A stretch of 64,000 nt of DNA from Escherichia coli (GTDB lineage Bacteria > Pseudomonadota > Gammaproteobacteria > Enterobacterales > Enterobacteriaceae): assembly GCF_003018255.1 (NCBI RefSeq), contig NZ_CP027440.1; one strand, written 5' to 3'. Shown here one piece after another: positions 433 through 62,820 of the stretch. The notes beneath the pieces are model-generated. The model ran no database searches and was not told the origin of the DNA. It saw only the letters and a list, made by a program, of their open reading frames with translations. Both the position numbers and the translations under genes were made by a program. Within the stretch, counting starts at the first letter, position 1. Every line of letters starts with the position of its first letter.

Positions 433-543
433 TCAACTAAACAGCCCAATCATCGCGGCACACAGCACGGCAGCAACAGCAGTTTGCGGTGTGTGGCTGT
501 CAACTGCGCCACTCGATACCAGATTAATTATTGATTCCAGCAT
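433..543 (-). CDS. yshB: Small protein, 36 aa (MLESIINLVSSGAVDSHTPQTAVAAVLCAAMIGLFS), YshB-like
   Basis: Hand-translated minus-strand ORF (ATG at 541-543, stop at 433-435), below the ORF-track length cutoff; identity from recollection of a small gene in this intergenic region. Confidence 0.4.
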   Translation of the reverse strand: MLESIINLVSSGAVDSHTPQTAVAAVLCAAMIGLFS

Positions 544-2075: not shown

Positions 2076-3125
2076 TTATTTCCTGATAGGCAGGTAAACC
2101 GAGAACTCGGTATGACCTGGCCAACTGGTAAATTCAATTTTGCCTGAATGCTGATCAATCAAATTACGGGCGATGGATAAGCCAAGCCCGGTGCCACCTT
2201 CGCGGCCGCTGACCATCGGGTAAAACAGCGTATCCTGCAAATGAGGCGGAATACCTGGCCCGTTATCTTCCACATCAATTCGCGCCGCCAGCCGATAGCG
2301 CTCGCCGTGTAAGGTCAGTTGAAACGCTGTGCGGGTACGCAGAATGATTTCACCACCCTCCGGCCCCAGCGCCTGTAGCGCATTGCGCACAATATTCAGC
2401 AAGACCTGTTCAATTTGATCCGGGTCGTGCGCCAGTTCCGGCAGGCTGGGGTCGTAATCCCGAATCAACCGCACGTTGTCCGGCAGTTCCATCGACACCA
2501 GCGTCACCACGCGTTCAGCTACTTTATGAATACTTTCGGTAACGCGCGTACCGGGCAGTTGCGGTCCCAACAGACGGTCGACCAGATTTCGCAGCCGGTC
2601 CGCCTGTTCGATAATCACTTTGGTATATTCGAGTAGTGACGGGTCAGGTAATGCTTTGCTGAGCAGCTGCGCCGCGCCACGTAAACCGCCAAGCGGATTT
2701 TTAATCTCATGTGCCAGGCCGCGCACTAAATCACGGGCAGCAACCTGCTGGGCGTGCTGTAGCTGTTCCTGACTTAAGCGGCGCTGGTTATCCATCGGTG
2801 CCATCTCCAGCAGGATCATGCCGTCCGGCATACGCTGGGCCGTCACAGAAAGGATATGCGAGCGCCCGTCGATGACCAGCGTCACTTCGTTATCAGTAAA
2901 ACCTTGCCCCGCCTCCAGACTTTCTTGCATCAGCTCGATATTTAATGAGAAGTAGCTCAACAGTTCCGGTAACGGTGTACCAAACAATTTGCGGGAGCTT
3001 TGGGCGAGCAGTTGTTGCGCGGCGGGGTTGGCGTAATGGATCGCCAGGTTGTCATCGATTAACAAAATACTGTTAATCAGCGAGTTGAGGATCTGCCCAG
3101 CATCGGGCTGCGTGCCTGTTGCCAT
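2076..3125 (-). CDS. glnL: Nitrogen regulation sensor histidine kinase NtrB (NRII), 349 aa
   Basis: ORF-track peptide [25 protein letters not shown]... with H-box HEIKNPLGG; 11-nt gap to glnG. Confidence 0.93.
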
Positions 3126-3213
3126 AAAGCAGTCTCCTGAACAGGTTGCACCATTTTAGTGCATTATAGCTTTTTACGGATAAAAAGCGCGAAGCATCAG
3201 AGAATTGACGGAG

Positions 3214-3238
3214 AAAAAAGCCCATGCAGAGATGGGCT
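3214..3238 (-). terminator. Rho-independent terminator of glnA (hairpin gcccatctctgcatgggc followed by a T-run on the minus strand)
   Basis: Plus-strand aaaaaag-cccatgcagagatgggc read at 3214-3237. Confidence 0.6.
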
Positions 3239-3298
3239 GAAAGTTTCCACGGCAACTAAATCCCGGCGTTGTTGCGCCGGGTAGTACAACTTCAACTA
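3214..3298 (-). ncRNA. glnZ: glnA 3'UTR, candidate 3'UTR-derived sRNA (GlnZ-like)
   Basis: Region between the glnA stop and its terminator; 3'UTR-derived sRNAs from glnA are described in enterobacteria; no structure-level confirmation here. Confidence 0.3.
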
Positions 3299-4708
3299 TT
3301 AGACGCTGTAGTACAGCTCAAACTCTACCGGGTGCGGAGTCATACGCACGCGGTCATCTTCTTCGCGACGCAGAGCGATGTACGCATCGATCGCTTCATC
3401 AGTGAACACGCCACCGGCTTTCAGGAACTCACGGTCCAGATCCAGTTCGTTCAGTGCTTCTTCCAGAGAACCAGCAACCTGTGGGATCTCTTTCGCTTCT
3501 TCCGGCGGCAGGTCATACAGGTTTTTGTCCATCGCTTCGCCCGGATGGATCTTGTTCTTGATACCGTCAAGACCGGCCATCAGCAGGGCAGCAAAGCACA
3601 GGTACGGGTTAGCCGCCGGGTCCGGGAAACGTACTTCGATACGACGTGCTTTCGGAGAAGAAACCACTGGAATACGGATAGACGCAGAACGGTTACGCGC
3701 AGAGTAAGCCAGCATTACCGGTGCTTCGTAGCCCGGGACCAGACGCTTGTAAGAGTTGGTGGTCGGGTTTGCCAGGGCGTTAATCGCTTTCGCGTGTTTG
3801 ATGACGCCGCCAATGTAGTACAGCGCCTGTTCAGACAGACCTGCATATTTGTCGCCCGCGAACAGGTTAACGCCATTTTTAGCCAGCGACATATGGCAGT
3901 GCATACCGGAGCCGTTATCACCGAACATCGGTTTTGGCATAAAGGTCGCGGTTTTACCGAAGCGGTGCGCTACGTTGTGCACAACATATTTGTAGATCTG
4001 AATTTCGTCAGCTTTTTTGGTCATGGTATTGAAGCGGGTAGCCACTTCGTTCTGACCAGCAGTCGCTACTTCGTGGTGATGGGCTTCAACCACCAGACCC
4101 ATCTGTTCCATCACCAGACACATTTCAGAACGAATATCCTGAGCAGAGTCTACCGGCGGAACCGGGAAGTAACCGCCTTTCACTGCCGGACGGTGACCTT
4201 TGTTACCACCTTCGTATTGGGTGGAGGAGTTCCATGCGCCTTCGATATCGTCGATAGCAACGTGAGAACCGGAGATAGATGATCCGAAACGGATGTCATC
4301 GAACAGGAAGAATTCAGGTTCTGGCCCGAACAGTACGGTGTCGGCAATGCCAGTGGAACGCAGGTAATCTTCGGCGCGCTTCGCAATAGAGCGCGGGTCA
4401 CGGTCATAGCCTTGCAGGGTGCCAGGTTCAAGGATGTCGCAACGGATAATCAGGGTAGAATCGGCGAAGAACGGGTCAATCACTGCGGTGGATGCGTCTG
4501 GCATCAGCACCATGTCGGATTCGTTAATGCCTTTCCAGCCGCCAATCGAGGAGCCGTCAAACATTTTGCCTTCTTCGAAGAATTCAGCATTCACCTGATG
4601 AGCAGGGATAGTGACGTGCTGTTCTTTACCTTTGGTATCGGTGAAGCGCAAATCAACAAACTTCACTTCGTGCTCGTTCAGCATCGTCAGTACGTGTTCA
4701 GCGGACAT
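3299..4708 (-). CDS. glnA: Glutamine synthetase, 469 aa
   Basis: ORF-track peptide [35 protein letters not shown]...; ATG read at 4706-4708. Confidence 0.97.
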
Positions 4709-4791: not shown

Positions 4792-4808
4792 AGCGAAAAC
4801 TGTGCCAA
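4792..4808 (-). promoter_or_regulatory. glnAp2 sigma54 promoter (-24/-12 element TTGGCACagtttTCGCTT on the minus strand)
   Basis: Plus-strand aagcgaaaactgtgccaa at 4791-4808 is the reverse complement of the GG-N10-GC sigma54 consensus, about 85 nt upstream of the glnA ATG. Confidence 0.75.
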
Positions 4809-4860
4809 CTTTTAAATTGCCCCTAAAAGGCGTTATCATGCTTAACATCGTGCAAAAGGG

Positions 4861-4929
4861 CTGCACCATGATGTGAATGTTGCACCAATATAGTGCTTCA
4901 ATGGAAACATTAAGCACCATATTGGTGCA
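4861..4929. promoter_or_regulatory. NtrC (NRI) upstream activator sites for glnAp2
   Basis: TGCACC...GGTGCA-type dyads read at 4881-4896 (tgcaccaatatagtgc) and 4914-4929 (gcaccatattggtgca), plus a further tgcacc repeat from 4861. Confidence 0.65.
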
Positions 4930-5080
4930 ATGACCTTTGGATAACCCTTTTTATGCTCCGTGAAAGCGATCACAAAGGGACTCTGCAATACTTGTTTGCG
5001 GAGGATGTTTGTGATCCTGTTTTGTAGTGCGATTAATCCGTGTACAATAACGCGCTATTTCTAATGCCTGAGGCAAAGTT

Positions 5081-6904
5081 GTGATCGAAAAATTGCGTAA
5101 TATCGCCATCATCGCGCACGTAGACCATGGTAAAACCACCCTGGTAGACAAGCTGCTCCAACAATCCGGTACGTTCGACTCTCGTGCCGAAACCCAAGAG
5201 CGCGTGATGGACTCCAACGATTTGGAGAAAGAGCGTGGGATTACCATCCTCGCGAAAAACACCGCTATCAAATGGAATGATTACCGTATCAACATCGTTG
5301 ATACCCCGGGGCACGCCGACTTCGGTGGTGAAGTTGAACGTGTAATGTCCATGGTAGACTCAGTGCTGCTGGTGGTTGACGCATTTGACGGCCCGATGCC
5401 GCAAACGCGCTTCGTAACCAAAAAAGCGTTTGCTTACGGCCTGAAGCCGATTGTTGTTATCAACAAAGTTGACCGCCCTGGCGCGCGTCCTGATTGGGTT
5501 GTGGATCAGGTATTCGATCTGTTCGTTAACCTCGACGCGACCGACGAGCAGCTGGACTTCCCGATCGTTTACGCTTCTGCGCTGAACGGTATCGCGGGTC
5601 TGGACCACGAAGATATGGCGGAAGACATGACCCCGCTGTATCAGGCGATTGTTGACCACGTTCCTGCGCCGGACGTTGACCTTGACGGTCCGTTCCAGAT
5701 GCAGATTTCTCAGCTCGATTACAACAGCTATGTTGGCGTTATCGGCATTGGCCGCATCAAGCGCGGTAAAGTGAAGCCGAACCAGCAGGTTACTATCATC
5801 GATAGCGAAGGCAAAACCCGCAACGCGAAAGTCGGTAAAGTGCTGGGCCACCTCGGTCTGGAACGTATCGAAACCGATCTGGCGGAAGCTGGCGATATCG
5901 TGGCGATCACGGGCCTGGGCGAACTGAACATTTCTGACACCGTTTGCGACACGCAAAACGTTGAAGCGCTGCCGGCACTCTCCGTTGATGAGCCGACCGT
6001 TTCTATGTTCTTCTGCGTTAACACCTCGCCGTTCTGCGGTAAAGAAGGTAAGTTCGTAACGTCTCGTCAGATCCTGGATCGTCTGAACAAAGAACTGGTA
6101 CACAACGTTGCGCTGCGCGTAGAAGAAACCGAAGACGCCGATGCGTTCCGCGTTTCTGGTCGTGGCGAACTGCACCTGTCTGTTCTTATCGAAAACATGC
6201 GTCGTGAAGGTTTCGAACTGGCGGTATCCCGTCCGAAAGTAATCTTCCGTGAAATCGACGGTCGTAAACAAGAGCCGTATGAAAACGTGACGCTGGACGT
6301 TGAAGAACAGCATCAGGGTTCTGTGATGCAGGCGCTGGGCGAACGTAAAGGCGACCTGAAAAACATGAATCCAGACGGTAAAGGCCGCGTACGTCTCGAC
6401 TACGTGATCCCAAGCCGTGGTCTGATTGGCTTCCGTTCTGAGTTCATGACCATGACTTCCGGTACTGGTCTGCTGTACTCCACCTTCAGCCACTACGACG
6501 ACGTACGTCCGGGCGAAGTGGGTCAGCGTCAGAACGGTGTACTGATCTCTAACGGTCAGGGTAAAGCGGTCGCGTTCGCGCTGTTCGGTCTGCAGGATCG
6601 CGGTAAGCTGTTCCTCGGTCACGGTGCAGAAGTTTACGAAGGTCAGATTATCGGTATTCATAGCCGCTCTAACGACCTGACTGTAAACTGCCTGACCGGT
6701 AAGAAACTGACCAACATGCGTGCTTCCGGTACTGACGAAGCCGTTGTTCTGGTTCCGCCTATCCGCATGACTCTGGAACAAGCTCTGGAGTTCATCGATG
6801 ATGACGAACTGGTAGAAGTGACTCCGACCTCTATCCGTATTCGTAAACGTCACCTGACGGAAAACGATCGTCGTCGCGCCAACCGCGCACCGAAAGACGA
6901 TTAA
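5081..6904 (+). CDS. typA: Ribosome-dependent translational GTPase TypA/BipA, 607 aa, GTG start
   Basis: ORF-track peptide (V)[25 protein letters not shown]...; gtg read at 5081. Confidence 0.96.
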
Positions 6905-27143: not shown

Positions 27144-30100
27144 TTACACCTTTTCCACATTCACAAGGAAGGACTTAAACTCCGGCGTCTGCGTGTTCGC
27201 ATCACCGACGAATGGCGTCAACGTATTGGCAATAAAGCCTTTTTTCGCAACACCTTCATAGCCCCAGTGAATCGGAATACCGATGGTATCGATATCTTTG
27301 CCGTTTGCTTTCAGCGTGCGAATACGTTTGGTCACTACCGCTTTGGCTTTGATATAGCCACGGTTGGAGGAGACTTTCACAGTATCGCCCTGGGCAATGC
27401 CAAGTTTATTCGCCAGCGACTCCCCGATTTCCACAAACTGCTCTGGTTGCAAAATCGCATTCAACAGCGCGTGTTTGGTCCAGTAGTGGAAGTGCTCGGT
27501 CAGACGATAGGTGGTTCCGACATACGGGAACTTATCGGCTTTACCCAATGCTTCGGCGTCGTCTTTAAAGATACGCGCAGCCGGGTTCGAGATAACGTTT
27601 GGATGCAGCGGGTTAGTTCCCAGCGGCGTTTCAAACGGCTCGTAGTGTTCCGGGAACGGACCTTCCGCCATCTTATCGAGGGCAAACAGACGTCCCATGC
27701 CTTCCTGCTGCATGATAAACGGCCCTACGCCGCTGCCCGGAGGCGCTGCGCTGTAGTCCGGAATATCCCAGCCGGTCCACTTAGTGCCGTCCCATTTCAG
27801 CAACTGACGCTTCGGATCCCATGGGTTACCCTGCGGATCTGCGGAGGCGCGGTTATACAGAATGCGGCGGTTAAGCGGCCATGCCCATGCCCAGCCCAGC
27901 GTGTTACCGAGGCCAGACGGATCGGCGTTATCACGACGCGCCATCTGGTTACCTTCTGGCGTCCAGCTACCGGCGAAAATCCAGCAGCCACAGGAGGTCG
28001 TACCGTCATCGCGCAGTTGGGCGAACGAGCTAAGTTGTTGGCCTTTCTTGACGATAACCGCACCGGTTGCCGGATCGGTAATATCGGCCAGCGCCTTACC
28101 GTTGCTCTCCATCGCCACTTCTTCCGACTTCGGCTCATGCGGAATGGCGTAGTTCCAGGTCATATTCAGCACCTGGTCCGGGTTTGCGCCACCCTGTTCG
28201 GCATACATCTTGCGCAAGCGCAGGAAGATACCGGAGAGGATCTCGCCATCAGTCAGCGCAATCCCTGGGGCGTCCGCACCTTTCCAGTGCCACTGTAACC
28301 AGCGACCGGAGTTAACGATTGAACCGTTCTCTTCTGCGAAGCAAGTCGATGGCAGACGGAACACTTCGGTCTGGATCTTCGACGAGTCAACTTCGTTCAG
28401 CTCACCGTGGTTCTGCCAGAAGTTAGAGGTTTCAGTGTTCAGCGGGTCGATGGTGACGAGGAACTTCAGTTTCGACAGACAACCGATCACTTTGTTTTTG
28501 TTCGGGAATGAGGCAACAGGGTTAAAGCCCTGGCAGATATAGCCATTGACCTTGCCTTCTTTCATCATCTCGAAGTATTGCAGGACGTCGTAGCCTTTAT
28601 CCCACTTCGGCAACCAGTCAAAGCCCCAGCTATTTTCCGCCGTCGCTTTATCACCAAAGAATGCCTTCATCATTGAGACGAAGAATTTCGGGTAGTTGCC
28701 CCAGTAGTTGACCTGGCCTTCCAGCAGTGGTTTTGGCGTGTTGGCAGCGAGGTAAGTTTGCAGATCGGTCTGCTTCTCGCTTGGCAACGTCATGTAACCT
28801 GGCAGACTCTGCGACAGCAGCCCCAGGTCGGTCAGCCCCTGAATATTGGAGTGACCGCGCAGGGCGTTAACGCCGCCGCCAGCCATCCCCATATTGCCGA
28901 GCAGCAACTGGATCATCGCCATCGTACGAATGTTTTGCGCACCAATGGAGTGTTGCGTCCAGCCGAGCGCGTAAAGGAACGAGGCAGTTTTATCGTGAGC
29001 ACTGGTCTCAGCGATGTATTCGCAGACTTTCAGGAATGCGTCTTTTGGCGTACCACAGATGTTTTCAACCACATCTGGCGTGTAGCGGGAAACGTGCTGT
29101 TTCAGCAAGTTCCACACGCAACGTGGATGTTGCAGGGTAGTATCGCGTTTGGCGAAGCCGTTTTCGTCCAGTTCGTAAGTCCAGGAGGATTTATCGTACT
29201 TACGTTTTTCCGCGTCATAGCCGGTGAACAGGCCATCTTCAAAGCCGTAATCCTCACGCACGATCAGGCTGGCGTTGGTATAGGCTTCGGTGTATTCGCG
29301 GTTGAATTTTTCATTGTTCAGCAGGTACAGCAATACGCCTGACAGGAAAGCAATGTCAGTACCGGAACGAATAGGGGCATAGTAGTCAGCTACCGCCGCC
29401 GTACGCGTAAAGCGAGGATCGATCACAATCAGCTTCGCGCCATTGTGAATTTTGGCTTCCATCGCCCAGCGGAACCCGACCGGGTGAGCTTCAGCGGCGT
29501 TACCGCCCATCACCACGACGAGGTTGGCGTTCTTGATGTCGACCCAGTGGTTGGTCATCGCACCGCGACCAAATGTTGGAGCAAGACTTGCTACCGTTGG
29601 TCCGTGTCAGACACGCGCCTGGTTGTCGACCGCGAGCATACCCAGCGCGCGGGAGAATTTTTGCGTTAAATAGCCGGTTTCGTTACTCGACGCGGAAGCA
29701 CACAGCATCCCGGTGGAGAGCCAGCGGTTAACGGTCACGCCTTCGGCGTTTTGCGCAATGTAGTTAGCATCGCGGTCTTCTTTCATCAGTTTGGCGATGC
29801 GATCAAACGCCTCTTCCCAACTGATTTGCTGCCATTTATCAGAACCTGGCGCACGGTATTCCGGAAACTTCAGACGGCTTTCGGAGTGGATGAAATCCAC
29901 CAGGCCAGCGCCTTTCGGACAAAGTGCACCGCGGTTGACCGGGTGATCCGGGTCACCTTCGATATGGAAGATAGATGCTTTGGCGTTTTTTGCTCCGTCA
30001 CCGAGGCTGTACATCAACAGCCCACAGCCTACGGAACAATAGGTGCAGGTATTACGGGTTTCGCGGGTGCGCAGCAGTTTATACTGCCGGGTTTCCGCGA

Positions 30101-34969: not shown

Positions 34970-35118
34970 CTGTTGCCGGATATACGATCTGTAGGCCGGA
35001 TAAGGCACTCGTGCCGCATCCGGCAATCAATGCCTGATGCGACGCTGTCGCGTCTTATCAGGCCTACAACTATTGCCGACCCGTAGGCCGGATAAGGCAC
35101 TTGTGCCGCATCCGGCAG
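34970..35118. repeat. REP/BIME cluster in the rhaD-rhaA intergenic region
   Basis: Repeated gtaggccggataaggc...gccgcatccggca and gcctgatgcgacgc...cttatcaggcctac units. Confidence 0.75.
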
Positions 35119-43902: not shown

Positions 43903-44045
43903 GTGTAGGCCTGATAAGACGCTATCAGCGTCGCATCAGGCATCCTGCTCAAATGCCGGATGCGGCGTAAACGCCTTATCCTGCCTACAAAACCCATAAA
44001 TTCAACAGGTTTTGTAGGCCTGATAAGCGTAGTGCATCAGGCATT
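43903..44045. repeat. REP/BIME cluster between yiiM and cpxA
   Basis: gtaggcctgataagacgc...gcatcaggc and gccggatgcggcgtaaacgccttatc units read directly. Confidence 0.75.
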
Positions 44046-49034: not shown

Positions 49035-49135
49035 TGCCTGATGCGCTTCGCTTATCAGGCCTACATGAATTCTGCAATTTATTGAATTTGCGAACTTTTG
49101 TAGGCCGGATAAGGCGTTCGCGCCGCATCCGGCAT
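49035..49135. repeat. REP/BIME elements after pfkA
   Basis: gcctgatgcgcttcgcttatcaggcctac and gtaggccggataaggcgttcgcgccgcatccggca read directly. Confidence 0.75.
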
Positions 49136-62221: not shown

Positions 62222-62752
62222 TTACGCTTTGTAGCTTAATTCTTCGATGGTGTGGAAATGGTTGGTATAGATGCAAATGTCGCCTGCAATATCCAACGCC
62301 TTTTCAGCAATTTCACGGGCGCTAAGTTCAGTGTTTTCTAACAGCGCGCGCGCCGCAGCCTGGGCGTAAGGGCCGCCGGAGCCGATAGCAATAAGATCGT
62401 TTTCTGGCTGCACCACGTCACCGTTACCGGTGATGATAAGCGAAGCGGTTTCATCCGCGACTGCCAGCAGTGCTTCAAGTTTGCGCAGCATGCGATCGGT
62501 ACGCCAGTCTTTTGCCAGCTCAACGGCGGCTTTGACCAGATGGCCCTGATGCATTTCCAGTTTACGTTCAAACAGTTCGAACAGCGTAAAAGCATCCGCA
62601 GTACCGCCCGCAAAGCCCGCGATGACTTTGTCGTTGTACAGACGGCGGACCTTTTTCACGTTGCCTTTCATTACGGTATTGCCCAACGTGGCCTGACCAT
62701 CACCAGCGATGACCACATGGCCGTTACGGCGTACGCTTACTATAGTTGTCAC
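62222..62752 (-). CDS. hslV: ATP-dependent protease subunit HslV, 176 aa
   Basis: N-terminal Thr protease peptide [31 protein letters not shown]... Confidence 0.97.
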
Positions 62753-62820
62753 GAGCTGACCCCTTGGTTACGAATACAGAGTACAAACCCCGTACAAAAG
62801 TACGGGGCATAATGCAATTA

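Follow-up and report, generated by a model that had tools for sequence, protein, structure and literature searches.

The 64,000-nucleotide stretch of Escherichia coli DNA analyzed here, referred to below as the window, carries the glnALG operon on its minus strand, with typA (5081-6904) divergent from it. The operon's glnA gene codes for the 469-residue glutamine synthetase (open reading frame 3299-4708, minus strand) and ends in a TAA stop codon at 3301-3299; it is followed on the same strand by a glnA-glnL spacer (3126-3298), by glnL (2076-3125, starting at position 3125) and by glnG (655-2064), in a layout equal to that of the annotated locus of O157:H7 EDL933, whose RefSeq annotation has no feature in the glnA-glnL spacer. 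The interval under study, 3214-3298, lies on the operon's own strand, 3' of glnA and 5' of glnLG, and glnA would provide the parental mRNA of any RNA derived from it. A 337-residue open reading frame running antisense to glnA (3269-4282, plus strand) was dismissed as a mirror of that gene. At the far end of the operon, 3' of glnG, a 36-residue open reading frame (MLESIINLVSSGAVDSHTPQTAVAAVLCAAMIGLFS; 433-543, minus strand) occupies the place where the EDL933 annotation has yshB, a small membrane protein.

Upstream of glnA, a pattern match with a single mismatch places an intact sigma-54 promoter core, TGGCACAGTTTTCGCT, at 4792-4807 (minus strand), and reading of the sequence further upstream reveals TGCACC-type sites at about 4850-4935 (minus strand); we take these elements to be glnAp2 and the NtrC sites of the E. 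coli glnA promoter, respectively. The loose sigma-54 pattern is not enriched in the window (41 matches versus 43 expected), and it is position together with the one-mismatch match, and these alone, that identify glnAp2. The divergent glnA-typA spacer also holds a full-length match to the Rfam ES222 sRNA (4892-4999, plus strand; 133 bits against a gathering score of 62), which has the orientation of typA and shares positions with the NtrC enhancer sites in the promoter region of glnA. Further Rfam matches at gathering threshold elsewhere in the window correspond to SECIS_3, a selenocysteine insertion element (29554-29612, minus strand), two REP-derived naRNA4 elements (34994-35064, plus strand, and 43908-43985, minus strand), ES036 (49057-49098, minus strand) and the ClpQY (hslVU) promoter element (62750-62807, minus strand).

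The glnA-glnL spacer itself accommodates the glnL promoter region (3147-3168, minus strand), where a perfect TATAAT hexamer (3163-3168) overlaps a palindromic NtrC-type site, TGCACTAAAATGGTGCA (3147-3163). Hexamer and palindrome are invariant in all aligned E. coli alleles and correspond to the classical autoregulated glnLp; our promoter scan missed this promoter. We dismissed a 60-residue open reading frame at 3073-3255 (minus strand), which would start at a UUG within the seed described below, crosses both the terminator and the glnL promoter and is devoid of a ribosome-binding site.

The 3214-3298 interval is the complete glnA 3'UTR: its 85 nucleotides begin, on the minus strand, at the first base past the TAA codon (3298) and finish with the final U of a U6 tract (3214). 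The sequence-only reading had delimited it exactly but had loosely described it as the region between stop codon and terminator, when in fact the terminator is part of it. Read from 3298 to 3214, the RNA begins with UAGUUGAAGUUGUACUA and continues with a first hairpin of seven G-C pairs (CCCGGCG-CAACAA-CGCCGGG; UTR nucleotides 18-37, window positions 3262-3281), an AUUUAG linker, the 12-mer UUGCCGUGGAAA, a CUUUC stretch, a second hairpin (AGCCCAU-CUCUGC-AUGGGCU; 3238-3219) and a closing UUUUU. The second hairpin, with its 7-bp stem, 6-nt loop and U6 tract, constitutes a Rho-independent terminator (3214-3238, minus strand) and the presumed Hfq-binding 3' end of the molecule, and the usual Hfq features are found in the sequence, namely a U6-tailed terminator preceded by a U-rich stretch. 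The 12-mer covers UTR nucleotides 44-55 (3244-3255, minus strand), has one single exact occurrence in the 64-kb window and lies within an extended conserved block of 21 nt, UUUAGUUGCCGUGGAAACUUU (3240-3260, minus strand), which also includes U41 (3258) and G46 (3253; equivalent to G12 of the K-12 RNA). The 85-mer has a minimum free energy of -28.3 kcal/mol (z = -2.27 versus dinucleotide shuffles), and in the predicted fold the two hairpins, whose stems have an unpaired probability of about 0, enclose a mostly unpaired seed (mean unpaired probability 0.61).

This exact sequence is already known as a published, experimentally characterized sRNA. By 5' and 3' RACE in EDL933, Jia et al. (2021) delimited an RNA with a length of "exactly 85 nt", which they named EsrF and whose first base is the T adjoining the glnA stop codon, while its 3' end falls in the terminator (PMC8092317). 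Miyakoshi et al. (2022) distinguished three E. coli glnA 3'UTR types, of 197 nt in K-12, 85 nt in O157 and 230 nt in O111, and found by northern blot, with glutamine as the sole nitrogen source, that the O157 and O111 types yield GlnZ of the expected sizes; they further reported that the O157 UTR is functional after a swap into K-12, linked a U at position 41 to aceE regulation, with U41G affecting aceE, and defined the seed as 5'-UUGCCGUGGAAA-3', which is matched exactly at 3244-3255 (PMC9731577). Walling et al. (2022) described a class I GlnZ with its seed directly 5' of the terminator and few bases past the stop codon and showed that the EDL933 RNA is induced by nitrogen depletion and represses glnP, sucA and aceE, with compensatory mutants in support (bioRxiv 10.1101/2022.04.01.486790).

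The final part of glnA together with the entire spacer, searched as a 205-nt query, has 100% identity in EDL933, in SE15 and in thousands of genomes of the species. Among 5,426 complete E. coli genomes, 5,425 contain a match. Compared with the EDL933 GlnZ/EsrF RNA, the RNA of the window has the same length, 5' end, terminator, seed and U41, with no sequence difference over the whole glnA-glnL spacer; the host strain belongs to a different E. coli lineage (its closest complete genome is 99.7% identical over the window's first 25 kb). With high confidence, we therefore assign 3214-3298 (minus strand) to the 85-nt O157-type or class I GlnZ (EsrF), an Hfq-dependent sRNA from the glnA 3'UTR. The sequence-only reading, which had proposed a GlnZ-type 3'UTR-derived sRNA and left its confirmation to seed conservation, is borne out by the identity of the spacer to that of EDL933, where the 85-nt RNA was RACE-mapped, by alignment with the described GlnZ RNAs (100% to EDL933, with the 21-nt block identical to that of K-12 GlnZ) and by the exact published seed, recovered across the order as detailed below. 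Only its designation as a "candidate" proved outdated, since the RNA has already been published and characterized for this exact sequence.

The published accounts of the 85-nt RNA disagree on how it is made and regulated. According to the EsrF model of Jia et al. (2021), a separate promoter within the glnA 3' end gives rise to the RNA as a primary transcript, which is repressed by NtrC and accumulates at high ammonium. In this model the RNA acts mainly through its GGGAUUUAG motif (UTR nucleotides 35-43; 3256-3264), which pairs with the flhB 5'UTR to increase flagellar gene expression and virulence. The model draws on resistance to TEX, on a glnA promoter deletion that was without effect and on REMSA with motif mutants (PMC8092317), and the motif is indeed present in the window, with its complement CUAAAUCCC found at -93 of K-12 flhB. 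In contrast, two independent groups saw the EHEC/O157 RNA induced by nitrogen limitation rather than excess, found GlnZ lost upon glnA promoter deletion in K-12 or upon RNase E inactivation, and state their disagreement with Jia et al. (PMC9731577; bioRxiv 10.1101/2022.04.01.486790). In the window, no sigma-70-like promoter 5' of 3298 (minus strand) passes our scan, a conservative one that misses the known glnL promoter as well, and on reading the sequence the candidate -10 hexamers upstream fit TATAAT at only 3 of 6 positions. Furthermore, the 7-bp GC hairpin sequesters the GGG of the flhB motif, whose unpaired probability is about 0, and the flhB duplex is no better than those of shuffled sequences (115 of 1000 as good). 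The EsrF model is, in our judgment, very improbable. The flhB pairing would nevertheless be compatible with the GlnZ identity as an extra target, so that biogenesis and regulation alone would be the competing claims.

To follow the 3'UTR across related bacteria independently of its own sequence, we located glnA 3' ends in a single genome of each species through the degenerate codons that specify the GlnA C-terminus (EFELYYSV*), which gave at least 120 loci, 75 of which belong to Enterobacterales genera and retain at least 100 nt downstream; the seed was then sought within 450 nt of the stop codon. Among the matches listed, the exact 12-mer is present in 53 of the 75 Enterobacterales, with one mismatch in 8 and two mismatches in another 8, against a chance expectation for an exact 12-mer within 450 nt of about 3e-5 per locus. 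The 16 loci with one or two mismatches nearly always have their seed adjoining a GCCCAUC/GAUGGGC terminator, and seed and terminator occur together in 69 of the 75 species, again among the matches listed; the groups bearing this cassette include Yersinia, Serratia, Erwinia/Pantoea, Pectobacterium/Dickeya, Edwardsiella and Hafnia. The same module was found in 0 of 41 named non-Enterobacterales gammaproteobacteria among the matches listed (Rheinheimera, Cellvibrio, Marinomonas, Alkalimonas and others), and two unclassified "Proteobacteria" metagenome-assembled genomes that do carry it have Enterobacter-like downstream sequence. The exceptions among the 75 are Budvicia, an insect-symbiont Pantoea and one Enterobacter sp., in which the seed is lost or degraded, together with Rosenbergiella, where a three-mismatch variant still adjoins the terminator. 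Among the mismatched seeds, Photorhabdus and Xenorhabdus share a variant one G short, GUUGCCGUGAAAC.

The distance from stop codon to seed ranges from 10 to 321 nt (median 64) and the orthologous UTR length outside the block varies from 50 to more than 360 nt, whereas the seed-to-terminator arrangement is nearly fixed. A covariance model of seed and terminator, built from 59 non-Escherichia sequences only, retrieves a sole site in the 64-kb window, at 3214-3265 (minus strand; 64.6 bits, E 3.8e-17), the next best score being 11.1 bits. Together with the single occurrence of the seed and a fold more stable than those of shuffled sequences, this lone site indicates that the feature is more than a product of chance.

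Could the 3'UTR act exclusively in cis, terminating and stabilizing the glnA mRNA and setting read-through into glnLG, with no function in trans? The UTR does contain a strong terminator, whose deletion slightly lowers GlnA (PMC9731577), but a terminator leaves unexplained the exact, order-wide conservation of a 12-21-nt single-stranded block while the rest of the UTR varies. Moreover, swaps between UTR types are reported to leave GlnA and NtrC levels unchanged, and mutations in the seed with compensatory changes in the targets altered expression of sucA, glnP and aceE (PMC9731577; bioRxiv 10.1101/2022.04.01.486790). As these compensatory-mutation experiments contradict it, we assign a purely cis-acting role a negligible probability.

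The terminator hairpin of the GlnZ cassette is itself conserved in more than its capacity to fold: base pairing of its stem is preserved in 59 of 59 orthologues, 2 of the pairs being compensatory, while the primary sequence GCCCAUC/GAUGGGC is kept in 58 of 59 species. One could envisage a second, sequence-specific role for this hairpin beyond termination and generic Hfq binding (it could, for example, contact a protein or an RNA, or determine processing), with the allele-specific 5' parts of the RNA, among them the GC hairpin of the window allele, tuning extra targets such as flhB; we consider this improbable.

Rfam 15 has no GlnZ family. Its best match here, the RF02766 entry Ysr49 (Yersinia sRNA 49), aligns to the window at 3214-3318 (minus strand) with 34.1 bits (E 5.8e-4) against a gathering score of 95: the 3' half of the model coincides with the GlnZ seed and terminator (GCCGUGGAAACUUU and the hairpin), while the 5' half is unaligned. 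At the gathering threshold there is no Ysr49 match anywhere in the 64-kb window, and given the sub-threshold score and the unaligned 5' half, the window sequence is not a Ysr49 member as Rfam defines the family. In Yersinia nurmii and Y. artesiana, Ysr49 is likewise absent at the gathering threshold, and under relaxed thresholds only it matches the glnA 3' end in both, with 44 and 33 bits (positions 3117-3267 of our locus L086 and 1916-2013 of locus L106, both minus strand). Based on the location of these matches at the Yersinia glnA 3' ends, we propose that Ysr49 is probably the Yersinia orthologue of GlnZ, a link for which our literature search returned no precedent.

The K-12-type GlnZ (class III; 194-197 nt) shares with the window allele its locus, parental gene, terminator, 21-nt UUUAGUUGCCGUGGAAACUUU block and validated targets. 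Its seed block, however, lies 5-25 nt past the stop codon, with about 110 nt of inserted, REP-containing sequence between the block and the terminator, whereas in the window the seed adjoins the terminator and has a GC hairpin on its 5' side. In the alignment only the O157- and O111-type alleles have this hairpin, which the K-12 type lacks; directly 3' of it, O111-type alleles carry an insertion of 145 nt that extends the UTR from 85 to 230 nt (positions 372-516 of locus L003). About 994 complete E. coli genomes contain the insertion with at least 95% identity, and in about 286 genomes a copy of 80-90% identity resides at a different locus, between nfi and hemE (positions 601-732 of locus L130), which suggests that the insertion is a small, repeated element of intergenic regions. 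The short allele of the window is the commonest in E. coli, with an estimate, obtained by subtraction, of about 2,860 of 5,425 complete genomes.

In Salmonella enterica (class II; a 185-nt 3'UTR giving GlnZ1 and GlnZ2), the seed is placed directly 5' of the terminator, as it is here, but the 5' part of the RNA is longer than in the window allele. The Salmonella RNA is processed by RNase E and represses sucA and glnP, while an extra G beside its seed abolishes aceE regulation and adds deoD as a target (PMC9731577); at the equivalent position the window has U41 (3258), corresponding to the aceE-competent state. The K-12-type order (seed at the stop codon, GCCUG...CAGGC hairpin, insertion) is also observed in E. 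albertii, a Citrobacter sp. and S. enterica subsp. diarizonae. That UTR classes cross genus boundaries in this way suggests either ancient polymorphism or exchange.

To evaluate target recognition, we took the target leaders from K-12, as the respective genes lie outside the window, and paired them with the seed region of the RNA (nucleotides 38-60), using 1000 shuffled seeds as a control. Running RNAduplex on the whole 85-mer against whole intergenic regions had produced meaningless long duplexes with interior loops and was abandoned in favor of this seed-only analysis. The best sucA duplex spans -48 to -27 relative to the start codon (-20.4 kcal/mol), with 20 of 1000 shuffled seeds as good; that of glnP spans -22 to -11 (-18.4 kcal/mol; 38 of 1000) and that of aceE -105 to -91 (-20.8 kcal/mol; 6 of 1000), so that the native seed outperforms 98%, 96% and 99% of the shuffled controls, respectively. 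The pairing sites in the K-12 leaders coincide with the published ones, upstream of the region where translation initiates in sucA and just 5' of the Shine-Dalgarno sequence in glnP, and the predicted aceE site contains the validated C-99 of the K-12 leader (PMC9731577).

Expression, processing, Hfq dependence and repression in the strain analyzed here would follow by analogy from the literature on the identical O157 sequence and on the K-12 swaps. GlnZ is reported to be induced in an NtrC-dependent manner and to associate with Hfq, with RNase III involved at sucA and aceE; its accumulation depends on RNase E, and release of the sRNA from the mRNA is required (PMC9731577). Under nitrogen limitation, NtrC and sigma-54 would activate glnAp2, giving a glnA mRNA that would end at the 3214-3238 terminator. 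Cleavage by RNase E near the stop codon would then free the 3'UTR as a stable RNA, and we note from the sequence that the RACE-mapped 5' end (UAA|UAGUU) matches the RN|WUU motif of RNase E only in part. Presented as a single strand between the GC hairpin and the terminator, the UUGCCGUGGAAA seed would pair with the sucA, glnP and aceE leaders, and the resulting repression would divert 2-oxoglutarate to glutamate and glutamine synthesis while limiting glutamine import. In this architecture GlnZ resembles CpxQ, SdhX, NarS and SroC, Hfq-dependent sRNAs released by RNase E from 3'UTRs, which likewise combine a seed with the parental terminator under control of the parental promoter (PMC9731577), although their parental genes, seeds and regulons are unrelated to those of GlnZ.

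For the window itself the finding is of annotation value only, and the spacer downstream of glnA is to be labelled glnZ (O157-type / EsrF). At the level of the order, the conservation of the seed-terminator cassette would support an Rfam family for GlnZ that absorbs Ysr49, and the Photorhabdus/Xenorhabdus variant, along with the species whose seed is lost or degraded, offers cases in nature on which co-evolution with the sucA and glnP sites can be tested. More generally, GlnZ ties nitrogen status to carbon flux, in that the mRNA for glutamine synthetase also frees an sRNA, and this sRNA reduces 2-oxoglutarate dehydrogenase (sucA) and pyruvate dehydrogenase (aceE) as well as the import of glutamine (glnP).
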